Below, piece by piece: positions 985 to 16,443 of a stretch of DNA of 16,673 nucleotides. Each line of letters opens with the position of its first letter. Position 1 is the first letter of the stretch. The position numbers and the translations under genes are program-made. The notes under the pieces were generated by a model that was not told where the DNA came from, did not search any database, and worked only from the letters and a program-made list of their open reading frames with translations. This DNA comes from a virus, in the UHGV virus genome UHGV-0183032; one strand, written 5' to 3'.

Positions 985-1929
985 TTACTCCCAATCTTCG
1001 CCATATTTAGCGTGCGCAACTTTATAGTTTTCTTGCGCCCGATCTAATATTCGTTCGTTTAATATGTTACCGTCTTCGTCAACTAATACGGTAATCGTGC
1101 TACATTTGCAGTTAATTGAATTAGGGGATCTACTCCACCATTCGCGCTGCTCATCTATGGTGTATGTTTTACCGTGCCGCTGCGCGTGCGATAGCCTGGT
1201 AGTCGGTGATAATGCCGAAATGTGCATTTGCATAGTGCGCAGATTAAATTCTTCTGTCGCCGCTTCTGCCTCATCCATACGCGCTGTGCGTAACGCTGTG
1301 CATATTTCAGTTCGGGCAATACGTTTGCACCTGTATAGCGGTAACCGCGTCTCCTGATTCAATGTGCGCGCTATTTCCAGTGGATTTAAACCGCGTGCCA
1401 TACCTTCGGTTAATCTTCTTGCCATATCCTTTTTGATCTGTGCGGTCAGCCCGCGCATTTCCTCAAATACACGGGTACGTACCAGGGCAAGGCGGGTGCG
1501 GTAAGTTGTGCTTGATAACACGGCAGATACATCAGGGTAGGCGCTTGAGTACGTGACAGACTGGTTAGCGAGGTTGGCATATTCCTGTGCCGTGCCGCGC
1601 TGATAGGCCACCTTCACGTAATTCTGCCAGAACCAGAAGTTTTCCGGGTCTGTTAACTCGAATATCTCATCAATCATGTCGCTTGCGTCCTCCAGCATGT
1701 CGTGAAATTCATCCATGTAAATCTGAAAGGTGTATTTCTTATTAACAGCCAGGCTATATTGGATTCTGTCCAATATGGCGATATATGGATCGGCTACTTT
1801 TTTCAGGCAGGATTTGAAACGCTTAATAGCACCAGACCTTAACTTCCCTGTCATGGTCGGGTCTTCGGTGTTAGATGGCATTATCGCGGCTGGAGGTATT
1901 CGCCTGATTATCTTCTTCACATTCATCAT
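985..1929 (-). CDS. Head morphogenesis protein, Mu gpF / SPP1 gp7 family (minor head protein)
   Basis: 314 aa directly after the portal gene, as in Mu/SPP1-type head modules. ATG-ATG start at 1929/1926 with GAGGAA upstream. Overlaps the portal 3' end by 59 nt. Confidence 0.8.
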   Translation of the reverse strand: MMNVKKIIRRIPPAAIMPSNTEDPTMTGKLRSGAIKRFKSCLKKVADPYIAILDRIQYSLAVNKKYTFQIYMDEFHDMLEDASDMIDEIFELTDPENFWFWQNYVKVAYQRGTAQEYANLANQSVTYSSAYPDVSAVLSSTTYRTRLALVRTRVFEEMRGLTAQIKKDMARRLTEGMARGLNPLEIARTLNQETRLPLYRCKRIARTEICTALRTARMDEAEAATEEFNLRTMQMHISALSPTTRLSHAQRHGKTYTIDEQREWWSRSPNSINCKCSTITVLVDEDGNILNERILDRAQENYKVAHAKYGEDWE

Positions 1930-3241
1930 CGTTTTCCTCTTCCAGTTCTACCTCACTAGCCGGGCCATCGTATCCGGCAGCTTCGCGGATCTCGTCACCG
2001 CTGAATATTTCCTCACCAGTAGCGAGACATGCCTGATTGATTTGTGCCATTTTGTATGCCGCGTCGAGTAGCTCTGCTTTTGTCATGGCGTTAAGGTCGT
2101 CCCACAGTACAGATACGTCTACTGGCATACTGATAAGGCGGAGATCTGCCATCTTGCGGAATAGCTCCTCAAGCTCACCTCCTATTTCCTCACGGCGGGT
2201 CATGCAGCGGTTATTGAAGTAGCGGAGGTCTTCGGTTGATGCGCGTTCGCCCTGCTGATTCCCAACCAGGATACGCGTTGGAATATCGATACCAGCGGCT
2301 GCGGTTTGCAGGTTGACGTCATAGGTAGCGGAAGGATCTGCTACGGCAGTAACCAGCGGGCTAACGGTAGCTCCCTGTAATGCCATCATCACATCATTAC
2401 CTTTATTTATATCCTCTGCCGCTTCATTGAATTTTTCGCGTAGCTCTGTAACGTCGCAACCGTATGTTGCAGCCAGAGAACGGAAATCAATTTCTTTATC
2501 GAACGAGATAGCCAGTTGACGTGCTGCGTTTTTCAGGAATGATTCACCGCTGCCGCCTTCCACTTTCTCCAGTGAAACGAATGCGTTATAGGACGGTTCA
2601 AGGAAAGCGATGGCATCATCAGAATAATCACCGAAGATAAATATGCGATCTGGATGTATCTTTCTTGCTATGGTCTTACTGTTAATGCGCTCCTTGTATT
2701 CCCACCATGTAGGCAGGCCATAGTTTTCTTTATCCGGGTTTTCTTCGAAGTCCTTCGGTGTAAGAGCACCAGCCCATACGGGGGTAAATTTGGCAATGCC
2801 TACGCCTTTTGTTACTGGCTGATCCCACGGCTTGTTATCCCTGACGTGAATTAACAGTCCAGCATAACGACCGATGAGGCGGCGGCGATCGCATTCAGCA
2901 ATTACGCGCCAGAATCTATTGTCGAATCGTTTTTTGATTTCTCTTTCCCACGAAGTTTCCTTTTCCGCTTTCTCGTCTTCCGTACCTTCAATCAGCGTTG
3001 GCCTGGTGCGCCAGCACGTAGTAATGATCTTCTCAATAGCACCGTGAGCGATACCACCGCGACGATACAGTTTGTATAAATCGGCATAGGTGATTTCTTC
3101 TTTGAATCCGTATTCACTCCACGCAGCATCACGTTTTGCATCAATACCCATTGAGAATGGGTTAGCGGCTGCATAGCGGGCAAAGGCCGCCTGGCGTTGT
3201 GACAAGGCAGCATTAACCGCCAATTCTAAATTGGATGGCAT
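1871..3241 (-). CDS. Portal protein
   Basis: About 456 aa with an acidic C-terminal tail, positioned between terminase large subunit and the Mu F-like gene. Start chosen at ATG 3241 (AGGAG 8 nt upstream) rather than the track's upstream ATG at 3262. Confidence 0.85.
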   Translation of the reverse strand: MPSNLELAVNAALSQRQAAFARYAAANPFSMGIDAKRDAAWSEYGFKEEITYADLYKLYRRGGIAHGAIEKIITTCWRTRPTLIEGTEDEKAEKETSWEREIKKRFDNRFWRVIAECDRRRLIGRYAGLLIHVRDNKPWDQPVTKGVGIAKFTPVWAGALTPKDFEENPDKENYGLPTWWEYKERINSKTIARKIHPDRIFIFGDYSDDAIAFLEPSYNAFVSLEKVEGGSGESFLKNAARQLAISFDKEIDFRSLAATYGCDVTELREKFNEAAEDINKGNDVMMALQGATVSPLVTAVADPSATYDVNLQTAAAGIDIPTRILVGNQQGERASTEDLRYFNNRCMTRREEIGGELEELFRKMADLRLISMPVDVSVLWDDLNAMTKAELLDAAYKMAQINQACLATGEEIFSGDEIREAAGYDGPASEVELEEENDDECEEDNQANTSSRDNAI

Positions 3242-3389
3242 AATGTTTACTCCTGAATACATGTTTACGCGTTGCTACGCGAAAAATATAAAAACTTGCG
3301 GGGGATTGTGAGGCAGATTTTATGTAGCCAATTGAGAATTATTCTTGTTCATCTTCGGAAATTTTTCGAAGTTGATAATAATCAATAAC

Positions 3390-5394: not shown

Positions 5395-5404
5395 AATTCA
5401 CCTC

Positions 5405-5488
5405 TCAATATTTATTGATGATATATACGCAAGCAACAAAACTTGCACAGTATGTTAATACTTCCAACCAATCGAATAATTCTTTCAT
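5405..5488 (-). CDS. Micro-ORF 9 of array: 27-aa single-helix hydrophobic peptide (MKELFDWLEVLTYCASFVACVYIINKY)
   Basis: ATG 5488-5486 with AAAGGT 6 nt upstream, TGA at 5407-5405, 10 nt before terS. Found by hand; below the 60-aa track threshold. Confidence 0.5.
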   Translation of the reverse strand: MKELFDWLEVLTYCASFVACVYIINKY

Positions 5489-5497
5489 TGTTTACCT

Positions 5498-5566
5498 TTA
5501 CGCGAAGAAAACAATAACAGTTAACAGCGTGCATATAGCCATGATTAAGAAATCACCATCAGACAT
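5498..5566 (-). CDS. Micro-ORF 8 of array: 22-aa hydrophobic peptide (MSDGDFLIMAICTLLTVIVFFA)
   Basis: ATG 5566-5564 overlaps the stop of micro-ORF 7 (ATGTCTGA); GGGGTG 9 nt upstream. Alternative internal ATG at 5542. Confidence 0.45.
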   Translation of the reverse strand: MSDGDFLIMAICTLLTVIVFFA

Positions 5567-5633
5567 TGATAATCACCCCAATAATAACTAATGCAACGGT
5601 ACACACGATCAACATAATATCAATAGCGTTCAT
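5559..5633 (-). CDS. Micro-ORF 7 of array: 24-aa hydrophobic peptide (MNAIDIMLIVCTVALVIIGVIINV)
   Basis: ATG 5633-5631 with GGTGA 5 nt upstream; TGA at 5561-5559. Confidence 0.5.
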   Translation of the reverse strand: MNAIDIMLIVCTVALVIIGVIINV

Positions 5634-5641
5634 GCTTTCAC

Positions 5642-5710
5642 CTATTGAGCAAGCGCGGTCATAGTGAGAACAATCGCAACGATCAGGAAAAAGAAATCAA
5701 GCCATTTCAT
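5642..5710 (-). CDS. Micro-ORF 6 of array: 22-aa hydrophobic peptide (MKWLDFFFLIVAIVLTMTALAQ)
   Basis: ATG 5710-5708 overlaps the stop of micro-ORF 5 (ATGA); GGGAG 8 nt upstream. Confidence 0.5.
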   Translation of the reverse strand: MKWLDFFFLIVAIVLTMTALAQ

Positions 5711-5787
5711 TTTTTAAACTCCCGATAAACATCTACGGCAATAACTGTAATAACAGCCACCAGCAATAGCATTTCGTATGCGTTCAT
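5707..5787 (-). CDS. Micro-ORF 5 of array: 26-aa hydrophobic peptide (MNAYEMLLLVAVITVIAVDVYREFKK)
   Basis: ATG 5787-5785 with GAAGG 9 nt upstream; TGA at 5709-5707. Confidence 0.5.
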   Translation of the reverse strand: MNAYEMLLLVAVITVIAVDVYREFKK

Positions 5788-5798
5788 TGTGGATACCT

Positions 5799-5873
5799 TC
5801 AGCTTTCAATGAATATCATGATCGCCAGCCATACAGCGACGCAGGCAGAAAGGATAATTAGCGGGTCAATCAT
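5799..5873 (-). CDS. Micro-ORF 4 of array: 24-aa hydrophobic peptide (MIDPLIILSACVAVWLAIMIFIES)
   Basis: ATG 5873-5871 with GGGGTGA 5 nt upstream; TGA at 5801-5799. Confidence 0.5.
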   Translation of the reverse strand: MIDPLIILSACVAVWLAIMIFIES

Positions 5874-5878
5874 ATTTT

Positions 5879-5989
5879 TCACCCCACCAAATACTTGATA
5901 TATACGTTTATCAGCGCAACTATAATAGAACCAGCAAGAAACACAGAAACGCCGATTAATCCGGCAATGATGTAAGCGTCCATAATCAT
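5879..5989 (-). CDS. Micro-ORF 3 of array: 34-36-aa hydrophobic peptide ((MI)MDAYIIAGLIGVSVFLAGSIIVALINVYIKYLVG)
   Basis: ATG at 5989 overlaps the stop of micro-ORF 2 (TAATG); the in-frame ATG at 5983 has GGAAG 8 nt upstream and gives an MDAY N-terminus like micro-ORF 2. Confidence 0.5.
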   Translation of the reverse strand: MIMDAYIIAGLIGVSVFLAGSIIVALINVYIKYLVG

Positions 5990-6051
5990 TACTTCCACAA
6001 CAAAAACAATATTACAGCCGCCGCCATTCCGATAAATAAATAAGCGTCCAT
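5989..6051 (-). CDS. Micro-ORF 2 of array: 20-aa hydrophobic peptide (MDAYLFIGMAAAVILFLLWK)
   Basis: ATG 6051-6049 lies 2 nt after the stop of micro-ORF 1; TAA at 5991-5989. Shares the MDAY..G motif with micro-ORF 3. Confidence 0.45.
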   Translation of the reverse strand: MDAYLFIGMAAAVILFLLWK

Positions 6052-6053
6052 AA

Positions 6054-6143
6054 TCAGTCTCGCATAGACATAACTACCAGAAACAGGCAAAGGATGAATC
6101 CAGCCGCCATCCCGCCGACGAAAGTTAGTATTGACGCAATCAT
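6054..6143 (-). CDS. Micro-ORF 1 of array: 29-aa hydrophobic peptide (MIASILTFVGGMAAGFILCLFLVVMSMRD)
   Basis: ATG 6143-6141 sits 2 nt after the TGA of the HExxH gene (TGAttATG) with GAGG 8 nt upstream; codons checked by hand. Confidence 0.5.
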   Translation of the reverse strand: MIASILTFVGGMAAGFILCLFLVVMSMRD

Positions 6144-6145
6144 AA

Positions 6146-6688
6146 TCAGCCTCGTTTAAAACTCATAACACGCGGTACAAGCGCTTCTTTTGCTTTCGGC
6201 TTACGTTTACCTTTCTTCGCTGGCTTTTCTTCTTCCTTCGGCTGTTCTGCCTGTTCCAGCGCCTGATCGACGACTTCTGCCGCCTGCATTGCTGCAACCT
6301 GTGCTTCGTTTGATTCTGCTAGGATAGGGAAAAACGCATCGAAGATACGGCCTACCATGTAAGCGTAAGTCTCATTCGCCGGATGGGTAGGATCCGTGGT
6401 AGCCACGACGCCTACATCACTTAAAACGTGGAATGTAGTGTGGGCGCATTCATGGACCAGCGTTCCCAACTCATTGTTGAATACTGCGATCACGTAGAAG
6501 TTACCACCATTCTCGCCAGTGCAAGTAAGCGTTAATCCTCCAGCCAACTCGAAATCAGGTTCAATCGGAATTCCTGCCTTTTCGCAAAATTCATAGAACA
6601 TCTCGCGGGTCGGGCAAAAGAAAACGGTTGTATGCTCAAAGAGTGGGATCTTAAATTGAGGCAATTTAATGCCTTTAGCCTTAGCCAT
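6146..6688 (-). CDS. Hypothetical protein with HExxH zinc-metallopeptidase-like motif and Lys-rich basic C-terminal tail
   Basis: 180 aa; motif VHECAHTTFH; C-terminal KKGKRKPKAK tail; AGGAG 9 nt before ATG 6688. Function inferred from the motif only. Confidence 0.7.
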   Translation of the reverse strand: MAKAKGIKLPQFKIPLFEHTTVFFCPTREMFYEFCEKAGIPIEPDFELAGGLTLTCTGENGGNFYVIAVFNNELGTLVHECAHTTFHVLSDVGVVATTDPTHPANETYAYMVGRIFDAFFPILAESNEAQVAAMQAAEVVDQALEQAEQPKEEEKPAKKGKRKPKAKEALVPRVMSFKRG

Positions 6689-6967
6689 CAGAATAATCTC
6701 CTATTCTGAAAAATATAACCCCCGCAAAACTCGACACCGCAGGGAGTGAAAACAGTTATAAAACACTGAAAACGGCGCTTCATCAGTACCGTTTCCAGAA
6801 TTTTATAAAATTGGTGAATGGCGCTTTCTTCTACCCAGGTAGCGCCTGACCTGTTAATGGGACTGTTGATCCGGTATTACGTGTTTTTGACTATTCCGCC
6901 GTCGCTCGCGGGAAGGATTGGCCCGGTTATGGCTGGCTGGCGGAAACGGCGACACGTCCGCGCGCTG

Positions 6968-7438
6968 TTATTCTTTGCGTATGCACTGCGTTTTGATGTA
7001 GTCCTGTAATCCGGTGATCTTCGCGTCTTTCTCTTTTAGTTGTTCTCTGAGGGATAGATAATTTGATTGAGCACTGGCAGTAAGTCTACAGGTGGCTCCA
7101 TTAATGCTGCTGGCGGTTCCGGTGGCGTCGTGCACGTACACTGGCTCGGCGTTGACGTGCAACCTGATAGCACCGCTATCAATGCCAGCGCGAAGATCGG
7201 CAATGTCAGATCTGATAGCTTTAATCTCATCGTGATACCTCTTATCAAGTTTTGACAGTTCGGCGTTTCGCTCCTTCATCTGCTGGATAGTGTTACTTGC
7301 TGTTTTTAGTGCGCCTTTCGTCACCGTGACTTCTTCCTGTAACCTTGCCGCCTCACCCTGGTAATAACACGTTACGGCGGTAAGCCCGGCAATAATGCAA
7401 ACAACAACGGCGATGATTAACGTCTTCACCTTGTCCAT
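6968..7438 (-). CDS. Rz: Rz-like i-spanin (inner-membrane spanin subunit)
   Basis: 156 aa with an N-terminal TM helix ([16 protein letters not shown]) and coiled-coil periplasmic domain. Follows the endolysin and contains an embedded +1-frame lipoprotein ORF. Confidence 0.85.
7036..7230 (-). CDS. Rz1: Rz1-like o-spanin (outer-membrane lipoprotein), embedded in Rz
   Basis: 64 aa from ATG 7230 ([24 protein letters not shown]...); lipobox LSGC; Pro-rich mature part. Wholly inside Rz in another frame. The track start at 7248 is TTG. Confidence 0.8.
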   Translation of the reverse strand: MRLKLSDLTLPIFALALIAVLSGCTSTPSQCTCTTPPEPPAALMEPPVDLLPVLNQIIYPSENN

Positions 7439-7917: not shown

Positions 7918-8118
7918 TTACTTATTCCCCATTCGCGCGTCGTGTTCCTCTTGCGCTCGCTTGTTCTCCTGTGATTTGAAGTAATAGTTAACGGCAAATG
8001 TGCCTACGGTTGATAAGATACCCACAAAGACGGCAATGTCATTGATGGTTATCGCGCCGAAAAAAGCAGTTACGGCCCCAGTCACATACGCGCACGCCTC
8101 CCGTATTTTGTCGAACAT
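7918..8118 (-). CDS. Holin, two-TM class II (pinholin-like)
   Basis: 66 aa with two hydrophobic helices and a charged C-terminus (KSQENKRAQEEHDARMGNK). Immediately upstream of the SAR endolysin; GGAGG 7 nt before ATG 8118. Confidence 0.8.
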   Translation of the reverse strand: MFDKIREACAYVTGAVTAFFGAITINDIAVFVGILSTVGTFAVNYYFKSQENKRAQEEHDARMGNK

Positions 8119-8130
8119 AGATTTTCCTCC

Positions 8131-8160
8131 AACAAAGCAAAAACCCGGCGCGGGGCCGGG
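8131..8160 (-). terminator. Intrinsic terminator on the minus strand, directly upstream of the holin RBS (tR'-like)
   Basis: Minus strand reads CCCGGC-cccgc-GCCGGG followed by TTTTTGCTTTGTT: 6-bp GC stem, 5-nt loop, U-tract. About 13 nt separate it from the holin RBS. Confidence 0.6.
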
Positions 8161-8188
8161 TAATTACAATTTCGCATTGTTAGGAAAT

Positions 8189-8217
8189 ATTTTAATCTGT
8201 TTGTTTACGCCCTACAA
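8189..8217 (-). promoter_or_regulatory. Candidate sigma70-type promoter (late promoter P_R'-like) upstream of the terminator
   Basis: Minus strand TTGTAG, 17-nt spacer, TAAAAT; would give a roughly 50-nt leader ending at the hairpin. The -35 element is weak. Confidence 0.3.
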
Positions 8218-8224
8218 ATACGGC

Positions 8225-8401
8225 TTACGGCTTTCTATATATCAGGCCGTTATCAAGCAACATTTGCATATGCCGCCGATCCATGTCGCTTGATTCCCAA
8301 TGTGGATCGTCATCAGGTCTTATCATCACCTTATTACCTTTAAGTAAATAGACGATGTTAAATACCTTATGCAAATAGATACCATCTTCGATCTCGTTCA
8401 T
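8225..8401 (-). CDS. Hypothetical small protein, 58 aa (MNEIEDGIYLHKV...)
   Basis: Found by hand, codons verified. ATG 8401 overlaps the stop of the upstream ORF (ATGA). N-terminus IEDGIY resembles its upstream neighbour. Confidence 0.5.
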   Translation of the reverse strand: MNEIEDGIYLHKVFNIVYLLKGNKVMIRPDDDPHWESSDMDRRHMQMLLDNGLIYRKP

Positions 8402-9880: not shown

Positions 9881-9902
9881 GATTACACCCTTCTGATTTG
9901 AT

Positions 9903-9918
9903 GGGGCCATCCGGCCCC
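9903..9918. repeat. Perfect GC-rich hairpin (GGGGCC-atcc-GGCCCC) in a 43-bp intergenic gap
   Basis: 6-bp all-GC stem with 4-nt loop. A U-rich run follows on the plus strand (GTGTTTTAT), not the minus strand. Confidence 0.5.
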
Positions 9919-9923
9919 GTGTT

Positions 9924-10388: not shown

Positions 10389-10417
10389 TTTATAACAAAA
10401 TGGCACTGCCGAAACAA
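10389..10417 (-). promoter_or_regulatory. Candidate sigma70 promoter with extended -10 (minus strand)
   Basis: Minus strand TTGTTT, 17-nt spacer, TGt-TATAAA. Predicted start near 10382, about 30 nt before the RBS of the 10353 gene. Confidence 0.35.
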
Positions 10418-10434: not shown

Positions 10435-10450
10435 TGTGATACAGATCACA
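10435..10450. promoter_or_regulatory. Near-consensus CRP-type binding site (TGTGA-N6-TCACA)
   Basis: TGTGATACAGATCACA with flanking TT...TTT, matching the core of the Enterobacterial CRP consensus. Centred about 60 bp upstream of the predicted start. Confidence 0.4.
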
Positions 10451-12376: not shown

Positions 12377-12606
12377 TCCTCTGTCTCCCAGCGGTCTATG
12401 CTGATTAAAAAGTCCCGGATAGCGTGTCGCTCGTCGCGCGTCGGTTTACGCTTCCGGTAAATTTTGAAATCGAACCATTCTTTTTCTTGTTCGAAGTCCA
12501 GATCGTAAGCAAGCGCCTCGATATATCCGCAGTCGTGATACTGGTAAGCCACGCCAGCACGAACAAAAAAGCGGGTTTTATCCCGCTTGTGTTCATAGAT
12601 ACACAT
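12373..12606 (-). CDS. Hypothetical protein, about 77 aa
   Basis: Start chosen at ATG 12606 (GGGG upstream, no overlap with the upstream gene) rather than the track's ATG 12651, which overlaps by 35 nt and has GAAGG abutting the ATG. Confidence 0.5.
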   Translation of the reverse strand: MCIYEHKRDKTRFFVRAGVAYQYHDCGYIEALAYDLDFEQEKEWFDFKIYRKRKPTRDERHAIRDFLISIDRWETEE

Positions 12607-13420: not shown

Positions 13421-13725
13421 TGCTCGACCCACCTTAACATCCAATTCACATCACATTTAATTGCGAATACTCTCACCGGATCAGTGCCGAATAATGGATG
13501 TGTGATAGTTTTCACTTCGTACCCAAAATAAGGAAGGTTAATAATCCTGTGTTTTTCGTGGTTGGCAGGGTATCCCCATTTAATAATCAGGCGCTCATAT
13601 TCCCGCCCTTCCAGACGTTTACGCCAATAGTCATTATAAAGCCGGTATTCCTCCACCTTCTTTCCCGCCCGGATAGCGTGGAAATATTCCCCTTTCAGAT
13701 TCAAATGCAGGTCTTTACTTGCCAT
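13417..13725 (-). CDS. Possible ASCH/PUA-like fold protein, about 102 aa
   Basis: Start chosen at ATG 13725 (AGGA 8 nt upstream); the track start at 13761 is TTG. N-terminus LHLNLKGEYFHAIRAGKKVEEYRL resembles the ASCH/DUF3850 signature from memory. Confidence 0.5.
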   Translation of the reverse strand: MASKDLHLNLKGEYFHAIRAGKKVEEYRLYNDYWRKRLEGREYERLIIKWGYPANHEKHRIINLPYFGYEVKTITHPLFGTDPVRVFAIKCDVNWMLRWVEQ

Positions 13726-13990
13726 CGCTATGATCCTGTAAACAGTCGTTATAGCCTTCAATATATCCGGTTAATCCGGTATTACTCACTGACCATTCAG
13801 CAGAACGGCGCTTGATGGCCTCGTCCATCGTGATTTCACCTTTGCGATGACATCCGGTATCAATGTAACGGTTGACAACTGAAGATAACCGCCCGCGTAG
13901 CTGTTGTGTTCCGGCGTAATGACGGGCCGTTTCCGTCAGATCGTTAACCAACTGGCGGTAAATATGCTCTTTTAATTTAGGCTTCATCAT
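13715..13990 (-). CDS. Hypothetical protein, about 91 aa
   Basis: ATG-ATG at 13990/13987 with GGTGA upstream; the track start at 13999 is GTG. Confidence 0.55.
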   Translation of the reverse strand: MMKPKLKEHIYRQLVNDLTETARHYAGTQQLRGRLSSVVNRYIDTGCHRKGEITMDEAIKRRSAEWSVSNTGLTGYIEGYNDCLQDHSDGK

Positions 13991-14177
13991 CGTCACCACG
14001 CTTGTAAATTTTTACAGGCTTAATAGGGATGGCGGGCAATTCGCCTTCATTTAACGCGCTTGCCATACCCAATATTAAGCGTGCTTCAGCACCAGTGACC
14101 TTCTTACACCATGCGCCGCCTGTTTTATCTTCGAATAAGATAACGGCAAACTGATCGTTTATTTCCAGCTTATCCAT
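13977..14177 (-). CDS. Hypothetical protein, 66 aa
   Basis: ATG 14177 lies 1 nt from the stop of the Q-like gene. Confidence 0.6.
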   Translation of the reverse strand: MDKLEINDQFAVILFEDKTGGAWCKKVTGAEARLILGMASALNEGELPAIPIKPVKIYKRGDDDEA

Positions 14178-14905
14178 TATTCACCCCGTGTCACTCGTTT
14201 GATTTCGCTTTCCGCGCGGGCCTCTTCTTTGAATAGCTCCGCTATGGCGTCTTCATAGAAAACCCGGTATTTCTTCCACCATGTTGATCGGCTTACCGGA
14301 AAAACAAGCTGATTAACCGCCTGCCGGACGAGATCTACCGGGAAACGCGAGTACCCACGCCCGCCGCAATGCTGGCACGTTTTGAATACTGGCATTTCCG
14401 CCGCTTCGCTGGCTGCTTTATCCGGTACTTCGCCACGGCCCTTACACCGCTGGCAATGGTTTTTAACGTAGCCTTTGCCGCCGCACCGTGCGCAAATTGT
14501 TGATGTGTATTTGCAATATGGATTTGGTAAATGCCCGTGACCGCCGCACTTAGGGCAAACTTTTTCGGTCGCTGCACTCTGGCAGTAATCCCGAAACGCG
14601 AAAACGGAAACAAGAATAATAAGATCATTGCGTTGTGCCTCGTTTAACTCCATCACGTATTCGTAATCTTTCGCCATAGCCCTTAAACGCTCTGTAAGCA
14701 AAACTACGGCCCTGTGTTTTTCGGCTTGTGATAGTTCCATCTTCCCTAAAAAAGCGCTATATCCAAGCTCTACGCGCGATTGCGCCATACCCGCAGCGGT
14801 TAGCGCATCCGTCGTATTAAGAGCGTCCGGGGACGTGCCCCGGCTTTCGTCAGATAATCGCGGTGATTTAGGAAAGTGGAATTTTAGAATGGATTCTAAA
14901 TTCAT
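14177..14905 (-). CDS. Putative late-gene antitermination protein Q-like, with four DnaJ-type CxxCxGxG zinc-finger repeats
   Basis: 242 aa with CPKCGGHG, CARCGGKG, CQRCKGRG and CQHCGGRG. Sits after the nin/RusA module, where lambdoid phages carry Q. Family assignment is from memory of Q-type proteins of enterobacterial prophages. Confidence 0.5.
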   Translation of the reverse strand: MNLESILKFHFPKSPRLSDESRGTSPDALNTTDALTAAGMAQSRVELGYSAFLGKMELSQAEKHRAVVLLTERLRAMAKDYEYVMELNEAQRNDLIILVSVFAFRDYCQSAATEKVCPKCGGHGHLPNPYCKYTSTICARCGGKGYVKNHCQRCKGRGEVPDKAASEAAEMPVFKTCQHCGGRGYSRFPVDLVRQAVNQLVFPVSRSTWWKKYRVFYEDAIAELFKEEARAESEIKRVTRGE

Positions 14906-16284: not shown

Positions 16285-16360
16285 AATGCTCTCTCCTTTT
16301 CAGGTGATTTCTACGCATTTCAGCGCTGCCGGATTTTTAAAGAGCATTTTGTTTGCTTGA

Positions 16361-16388
16361 AGTATACAAAATGGATACGTCATAACAA
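16361..16388 (-). promoter_or_regulatory. Candidate sigma70 promoter driving the NinF-like/ninG/rusA/Q-like unit
   Basis: Minus strand TTGTTA, 16-nt spacer, TATACT, inside a 159-bp gap; predicted start near 16354. Confidence 0.35.
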
Positions 16389-16405
16389 GACGAAAAGCGC
16401 CATTA

Positions 16406-16420
16406 TGTGATCCACATCAC
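16406..16420. promoter_or_regulatory. Near-consensus CRP-type site (TGTGA-N6-TCACg), flanked by GCGCCATT/ACGCCATTTT repeats
   Basis: TGTGATCCACATCAC matches 9 of 10 core positions. Centred about 60 bp upstream of the predicted start, the same spacing as the 10.4 kb site. Confidence 0.4.
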
Positions 16421-16443
16421 GCAATGACGCCATTTTGTAAACT

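Follow-up and report, generated by a model that had tools for sequence, protein, structure and literature searches.

In phage lambda, a -10-like hexamer (AACGAT) at +1 to +6 of the late promoter P_R' holds sigma70 and pauses RNA polymerase at +16, and it is there that Q loads (PMC4005639, PMC9388147). The same arrangement of elements can be read in other phages with a Q-lambda-type cassette. Lambda and P22 have a -10 hexamer TAAATT, a 6-nt linker (TGACTC), and the pause element AACGAT; phi80 has TAGATT, a 7-nt linker (CATCTCT), and AACGCT; ES18 has TAATAT, a 7-nt linker (CGTTTCT), and AACAGT; and SE1 has TATCAT, a 6-nt linker (AACCCT), and AACAGT.

The temperate coliphages of the mEpimmI group (mEp021, mEp010, mEp013, mEp044, mEp515, mEp554, and MagusPhagus) are reportedly as common as lambdoid phages in human faeces and need both an N-like protein (Gp17, with nutL, nutR1, and nutR2) and a Q-like protein; three terminators of the group, t1, t2, and t5, have been experimentally demonstrated (PMC11893012). 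No late promoter, pause element, or qut site is described in the mEp021 record (MH706966) or in PMC11893012. Here we analyzed a 16,673-nt stretch of viral DNA (UHGV-0183032; the window), which belongs to this group (86 to 92% identity). We conclude, with a probability of roughly 0.78 and from sequence comparison, that positions 8217 to 8131 on the minus strand are probably a complete and very compact Q-lambda-type PR'-pause-tR' cassette that is read through by Q-modified RNA polymerase.

Results

All genes in the window lie on the minus strand. The region 8119 to 8224 is the entire gap between an open reading frame (ORF) of 58 amino acids (8225 to 8401) and the holin gene (7918 to 8118; 66 amino acids, HP1-type class II; PF16080, 57 bits), which is the first gene behind the terminator described below. 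It is followed by genes for an endolysin (phage lysozyme; 7426 to 7917; PF00959, 150 bits) and the i-spanin Rz (6968 to 7438; PF03245, 87.5 bits), with an Rz1 lipoprotein ORF bearing an LSGC lipobox embedded in Rz (about 7036 to 7230). Past Rz there is a gap and then the genes for the small and large terminase subunits and the portal and head genes, all in the same direction. On the minus strand, the gap upstream of the holin gene reads TAA-gccgtat-TTGTAG-ggcgtaaacaaacagat-TAAAAT-atttcc-TAACAAT-gcgaaattgtaatt-ACCCGGC-CCCGC-GCCGGGT-TTTTGCTTTGTT-GGAGG-aaaatct-ATG. With a 141-nt query covering it (window 8240 to 8100), 100% identity was found in three Escherichia coli chromosomes (e.g., that of strain MS 21-1), and mEp021 carries the same cassette with 96.5% identity over the 141 nt. 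Scans of the window with Rfam (at gathering thresholds) and for tRNAs returned no matches.

Two observations concern the genes farther downstream. The stretch from the lysis cassette to the small terminase gene (5400 to 6146, minus strand) contains about eight tiny ORFs of 22 to 40 amino acids, each encoding a single hydrophobic helix (e.g., MDAYIIAGLIGVSVFLAGSIIVALINVYIKYLVG) and resembling the mini-ORFs annotated in MagusPhagus. In L174, the gene at the portal position (13531 to 14901, equivalent to 1871 to 3262, minus strand, of the window) bears the RefSeq name "anti-CBASS protein Acb1 family protein," and its equivalent in mEp021 is named portal protein, which looks like an annotation conflict.

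An intrinsic terminator hairpin, ACCCGGC-CCCGC-GCCGGGT, occupies positions 8143 to 8161 (minus strand) and is followed by a U-tract and tail, TTTTGCTTTGTT, at 8131 to 8142. It has six G-C pairs plus a closing A-U pair (-12.8 kcal/mol) and would be the analogue of t_R', at +21 to +39 of the predicted transcript. The first-pass annotation of this DNA, made from the sequence alone, had claimed a 6-bp GC stem with a U-tract on the coding strand, 13 nt upstream of the holin ribosome binding site (RBS), with no room for a promoter behind it. The stem was indeed found as described, 13 bases separate its last G from the RBS (GGAGG, 8126 to 8130), and the distance from the stem to the holin ATG (at 8118) is only 24 nt, so that no promoter fits behind the hairpin. 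The RBS is invariantly GGAGG in relatives with the holin allele of the window and GGGGG in those with an alternative holin allele. When a strict test was applied (six perfect pairs, at least five of them G-C, and at least five T residues in the next six), only two hairpins passed in the 16.7-kb window, both on the coding strand, where dinucleotide shuffles predict 0.06 per window. The mEp021 record lists this hairpin as TERM_5 (score 100), and, judging from the order TERM_1 to TERM_5 in that record, it is probably t5 of PMC11893012. Neither a boxA (like CGCTCTTA or GCTCTTTA) nor a boxB was found in 8119 to 8224, the only hairpin there having a C/G loop and a U-tract.

Within the late unit, after the lysis genes, a second terminator-like hairpin is present at 6766 to 6798 (minus strand; T-rich tail to 6758), which equals TERM_6 of mEp021 and was found in 42 of 43 relatives, with one compensatory change (G-C to A-U). 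Such further conserved terminator-like hairpins inside the late unit call for processive antitermination. A match to the promoter-pause pattern at 6805 to 6788 proved to be part of this hairpin.

The first-pass annotation had also named a weak promoter, TTGTAG-17-TAAAAT, about 50 nt upstream of the hairpin. The two hexamers are present, the -35-like TTGTAG (3/6 consensus) at 8212 to 8217 and, 17 nt away, the -10 hexamer TAAAAT (5/6 consensus) of the predicted late promoter, the P_R' analogue, at 8189 to 8194 (both minus strand); the distance has to be corrected, to 27 nt upstream of the hairpin for the end of the -10 and 56 nt for the start of the -35. With a score of 8/12, the pair falls under the scan threshold and by itself is not significant; its significance comes from the comparison with relatives. 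Seven nucleotides (ATTTCCT) past this -10 lies the hexamer AACAAT, within a predicted sigma70-dependent pause element, TAACAAT (8176 to 8182, minus strand), which lies where lambda-type cassettes carry theirs and agrees with lambda AACGAT in motif and position. At that position, lambda, P22, phi80, ES18, SE1, and about 50 prophages with a Q-lambda-family protein have AACGAT, AACGCT, AACAGT, or AATGAT, and one Pectobacterium cassette uses AACAAT itself. Of 68 distinct Q-lambda prophage loci belonging to other species, 53 matched a regular expression for the -10/pause pattern, and most of the others showed it on inspection by eye. By analogy with these cassettes, transcription is predicted to start at A8181 (±1), which would place AACAAT at +1 to +6, and to pause near +14 to +17 (8168 to 8165), where a conserved T-G stands at +14/+15.

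A profile (R1) was built from 54 P_R'/pause regions of other Q-lambda prophages, with no mEpimmI member among them, and was run over both strands of the window with filters off. It returned a single significant match, at 8195 to 8162 on the minus strand (13.8 bits; E, 6e-4, with E values that are rough owing to shortened model calibration); the next best match had an E value of 0.28. The match aligns the -10, CUAACAAUG, and a downstream UUG, with high posterior probability over CUAACAAUG.

For the comparison within the group, 43 relatives were fetched via the holin protein and hence were not selected on the motif; they comprise 28 distinct upstream sequences. TAAAAT-N6-TAACAATGCGAAA and the CCCGGC/GCCGGG stem with its U-tract are kept in all 43, with the -10 invariant and aligned with that of the profile. 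When variation was counted per position over 32 haplotypes of equal length, none of the 31 positions of the -10 (6 nt), TAACAATGCGAAA (13 nt), and the stem (12 nt) varied, compared with 4 of 5 in the loop, 3 of 6 in the discriminator, 4 of 9 in the linker before the stem, and all 5 in the 5' part of the spacer; 35 of 66 third-codon positions of the holin gene were variable. The 4 to 6 nt on each flank of the invariant TAACAATGCGAAA vary, 1 of 13 positions of the U-tract does, and nine different loop sequences join stem arms that are the same in every relative. Because the stem never varies, no compensatory changes in it were available among the relatives. The minimum free energy (MFE) fold shows complementarity between TAACAATGCGAAA and the U-tract region as well, and this pairing of AACAAUGCGAAA could contribute to the conservation of the block; no substitutions informative for the AACAAUGCGAAA/U-tract pairing exist among the relatives. 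The cassette is unbroken whichever of at least four unrelated ORFs is its upstream neighbor, and likewise with the second holin allele; being intact next to differing neighbors, it behaves as a module of its own. An exact scan of viral contigs outside the group for the cassette core gave only mEpimmI-type contigs and some dozen unrelated matches due to chance. More remote homologues of the holin (about 50% identity) stand in ordinary lambdoid layouts, one of them (L053) with the canonical adjacent Q-P_R'-t_R', and were uninformative for the comparison. Thus, the sequence elements occur in the geometry typical of the family and are selectively conserved. The lambdoid P_R'/tR'/Q logic that the first-pass annotation had proposed gains support from the pause element, from this element-specific conservation, and from the lone significant profile match.

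The -35 is not constant in the group. In 19 of the 28 distinct variants, the hexamer is TTGTAG, TTGTGG, TTGTTG, or TTGTAT, with TTG kept at the correct spacing; the other 9, including that of the isolated phage MagusPhagus, lack a -35 and have TCGCGC instead. Given a -35 that is weak (3/6) or absent, the promoter may be feeble or dispensable. An arrangement that does without a promoter would have elongation complexes from upstream pause at the tandem TAAAAT and AACAAT via retained or captured sigma70, with Q loading there. The action of sigma70 in trans on elongation complexes is documented, the two -10-like hexamers are both invariant and stand in tandem, variants without a -35 exist (MagusPhagus among them), and the Q gene lies far upstream in the same transcription unit. 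Two-thirds of the variants nonetheless retain a correctly spaced TTG, the distance from the -10 to the pause element equals that in true promoters, and pausing is promoter proximal in every characterized Q-lambda cassette (PMC9388147). We therefore regard loading independent of a promoter as very improbable, and it is with the same strong reservation that we mention a promoter-distal qut site for at least the third of the family without a -35, in which polymerases of the early operon would be caught by sigma70 and loaded with Q.

Between the hexamers, a conserved spacer block, AAACAAACAGAT (AAACAAAYRGAT in relatives; 8195 to 8206, minus strand), is a candidate Q-binding element. Three of its 12 positions vary, whereas the part of the spacer just upstream of it varies throughout, and the spacer positions that would correspond to the lambda Q site vary among the relatives. 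The AAACAAACAGAT block is like the GAAAAACTGG spacer motif of phi80-type cassettes. No co-variation was found between Q alleles and cassette variants with or without a -35: no Q residue tracks the variable -35 region, and identical Q proteins accompany both cassette types. Any Q-binding element is therefore expected in the AAACAAAYRGAT block plus the -10, outside the variable part.

The Q gene itself (14177 to 14905, minus strand) encodes a 242-amino-acid antiterminator of the Q-lambda family (PF03589, 103 bits; cutoff, 26.7 bits). It aligns with lambda Q over its full length (33% identity; E, 3e-44) and with PDB entries 7UBM and 7UBN, the solved lambda Q loading complex (E, 3e-36), and its best-conserved part is the N-terminal stretch of 60 residues, from which the torus of lambda Q is formed. 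PF03589 was the only antiterminator family that matched this ORF; neither Q21 (PF06530) nor Q82 (PF06323) did. The nearest Q proteins outside the mEpimmI group are those of SE1 and ES18 (35 to 37% identity), and in mEp021 the protein (gp37) is annotated as "putative late gene regulator Q." Owing to a 33-amino-acid insertion, the Q protein of the window has four CxxCxGxG motifs, compared with two in lambda Q, which lacks the duplicated zinc-ribbon motif; from the sequence, this implies a doubled zinc-ribbon arm. Residues about 115 to 185 give a weak match to DnaJ_CXXCXGXG (E, 1e-6) and are the most variable segment of Q within the group.

As the first-pass annotation had stated, the Q-like gene lies 6 kb upstream: its stop codon precedes the -35 by 5,960 nt. 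In all 43 relatives with enough sequence, the distance from Q to the cassette is 3,029 to 6,727 nt (median, 5,391), and there is exactly one copy of the cassette core downstream of Q. The adjacency of other Q-lambda loci, where the -10 lies 3 to 177 nt (median, 54) past the Q stop codon, is thus not seen here. The interval between Q and the holin gene holds about 25 small, mosaic ORFs, which would count as delayed early and be fed by the operon that depends on nutR2.

The true late promoter and qut might be sought elsewhere between Q and the holin gene, for instance right after Q, as in lambdoid phages, or before a hairpin at 12588 to 12569, in which case the hairpin at 8161 to 8143 would be one of several downstream terminators. 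The candidates are a GTGACA-17-TAAGCT-7-AACGAT pattern directly behind the Q stop codon (14172 to 14154) and the best match of the window to a consensus promoter (12699 to 12672), about 85 nt upstream of that strong hairpin. The former behaves like coding sequence: it varies at synonymous positions (TAAGCT to CAAGTT in relatives), is missing in an alternative allele of the gene, and went undetected by the profile. At the latter, neither hexamer is conserved, the -35 and the -10 both being destroyed in relatives (CTGACA to CTGATG and TATCAT to CATCGC). Moreover, the loose pattern occurs five times in the window, compared with 5.4 expected by chance. A late promoter at another place in the interval is, accordingly, hardly to be expected. 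A further promoter-like site with a TG-extended -10 before terS (5641 to 5614) was not conserved in relatives and was also set aside.

The hairpin at 12569 to 12588 (minus strand), AAGCGGG-ATAAAA-CCCGCTT followed by TTTTTTG on the coding strand, was the second to pass the strict test. It lies no more than 50 nt into a small ORF (ATG at 12606), 1.6 kb downstream of Q, and is present in all of 46 relatives, with about 55 nt around it nearly invariant and the flanking coding DNA variable. No conserved promoter of its own was found among the relatives; possibly the hairpin acts as a checkpoint within the delayed-early operon.

Two more sites were noted in the accessory region. A perfect CRP-core palindrome, TGTGATCTGTATCACA, is located in a 98-nt gap (10435 to 10450, minus strand) and is followed by a hairpin (AATGGCA...TGCCATT) and then by an extended -10, TGtTATAAA (10389 to 10397, minus strand). 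With its center about 61 nt away from the predicted start, the CRP-like site has class I geometry. The module occurs in 13 of 44 relatives, with the half-sites kept and the central 6 nt variable, and may serve accessory genes that precede the late terminator as a promoter under host control. At 9901 to 9920 there is a GC-rich hairpin, GGGGCC-GGAT-GGCCCC, found in 18 of 44 relatives, with a T-tract on the plus strand only, antisense to all genes.

Just upstream of a NinF-like ORF, at about 16310 to 16440 (minus strand), a long t4-like hairpin, a boxA-like GCTCTTTAAAAA (near 16346 to 16335), and a small GCG/CGC stem with a TGAAAT loop were found together; this is probably the nutR2 site of the N-like system of the group. 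The boxA-like element and the t4-like hairpin in this place speak for an explanation without any late promoter, in which the hairpin at 8161 to 8143 ends a delayed-early operon (Q plus about 25 accessory ORFs), the late genes are reached by Gp17-modified polymerase loaded at nutR2, upstream of ninF, and TAAAAT/TAACAAT owe their conservation to something else. The site of Gp17 action is nutR2, and t5, probably this very hairpin, is a demonstrated terminator on the same map (PMC11893012). The early region through the head genes runs in one direction, and one-third of the cassette variants have no -35. Such an explanation leaves the retention of a full-length Q unaccounted for, as it does the invariant -10 and -10-like element with variable spacers between them and the fact that the only profile-significant P_R'/pause-like site of the window falls exactly here. 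Read-through of t_R' by way of N plays only a minor part in lambda. We consider it unlikely that Gp17 takes the place of Q at this site; Gp17-driven read-through is possible as a contribution at the hairpin.

Compared with the described cassettes, the one in the window shares with lambda a Q protein of family PF03589, a -10 followed 6 to 7 nt on by an AAC..T element at +1 to +6, and an intrinsic terminator that precedes the lysis genes, with holin, endolysin, spanin, and morphogenesis genes behind it. It differs from lambda in the position of Q, which in lambda ends about 65 nt before the -10 and here lies 5.96 kb away; in its leader, which is 194 nt long in lambda, with S about 400 nt past t_R', whereas the hairpin of the window begins at +21 and is separated from the RBS by 13 nt; and in its -35, which is strong in lambda (TTGACT) and 3/6 or absent in the group of the window. 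P22 (P_late/gene 23/t_late) and phi80 P_R' have the same short-leader design, with t_R' annotated at +31 to +59 and about +47 to +75, respectively, and the phi80 spacer, GGAAAAACTGGA, resembles the conserved AAACAAACAGAT; in both, unlike in the window, Q adjoins the promoter and several hundred nucleotides separate the terminator from the holin gene. The TAACAGT-AGAAAT of ES18 and SE1 is at the same distance from the -10 as the TAACAAT-GCGAAAT of the window, but these phages have an adjacent Q, a good -35 (TTTACA or TTGCAA), and a terminator at about +47. In 60 other cassettes the hairpin starts at +26 or later (median, about +39.5), and at 87 nt, counted from the -35 through the U-tract, the cassette of the window is the most compact of about 60 compared.

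A separate feature emerged from the alignment of 54 Q-lambda loci (A2; e.g., L002 788 to 812, L179, L181, and L225), in which changes in the four bases transcribed first go together with changes in a tetramer at about +19 to +25 that is complementary to them (AACG/CGTT, AACA/TGTT, AATG/CATT, and AATA/TATT). All four pairs were standard in 43 of 54 cassettes, compared with 33.0 ± 1.5 (maximum, 38) for shuffled partners. This co-variation suggests a 5'-terminal stem in P_R' transcripts. A compressed version of such a stem, ACAAU (+2 to +6) with AUUGU (+12 to +16), can be drawn at 8180 to 8166 (minus strand) of the window and is only partly kept in relatives.

Discussion

The mechanism that we propose for the mEpimmI late switch is the known Q-lambda one, and its layout, with Q and qut split, a minimal leader, and an optional -35, is a variant undescribed for the group. 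From homology of design, we infer where transcription starts, that it pauses, where Q binds, and that Q is required. In the proposed sequence of events, RNA polymerase with sigma70 would start at about A8181 from the TAAAAT promoter, region 2 of sigma70 would rebind the -10-like AACAAT at +1 to +6, and the complex would pause after about 14 to 17 nt. When Q is lacking, the polymerase would go on to transcribe the hairpin, where the first run of U residues ends at +43, and an RNA of about 45 nt would be released before the holin RBS, leaving the lysis genes silent, also in the lysogen. Q would be made from the delayed-early operon that depends on the N-like Gp17 and nutR2, bind DNA in the conserved block, either over the -10 or immediately before it, and join the paused complex. 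The polymerase so modified would then ignore the hairpin at 8161 to 8143 and later ones (e.g., that at 6798 to 6766) and transcribe the holin, endolysin, spanin, terminase, and head genes.

For the mEpimmI phages, this analysis gives the site and the predicted transcription start of a late switch that had previously not been described. The hairpin would, in addition, shield the lethal lysis genes from transcription of the accessory genes of the prophage. The group offers a natural example of a Q gene split from its predicted loading site by a variable accessory block of 3 to 7 kb; the intervening accessory genes would then be delayed early rather than late, and the system could do without the adjacency of Q that is seen in lambdoid phages. 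Promoter-distal loading of Q, if true, would explain how Q and its site could drift apart. A terminator that starts 4 to 7 nt past the predicted pause would set a lower bound on the room that Q needs for loading, and the cassette could be usable as a small Q-controlled genetic part.
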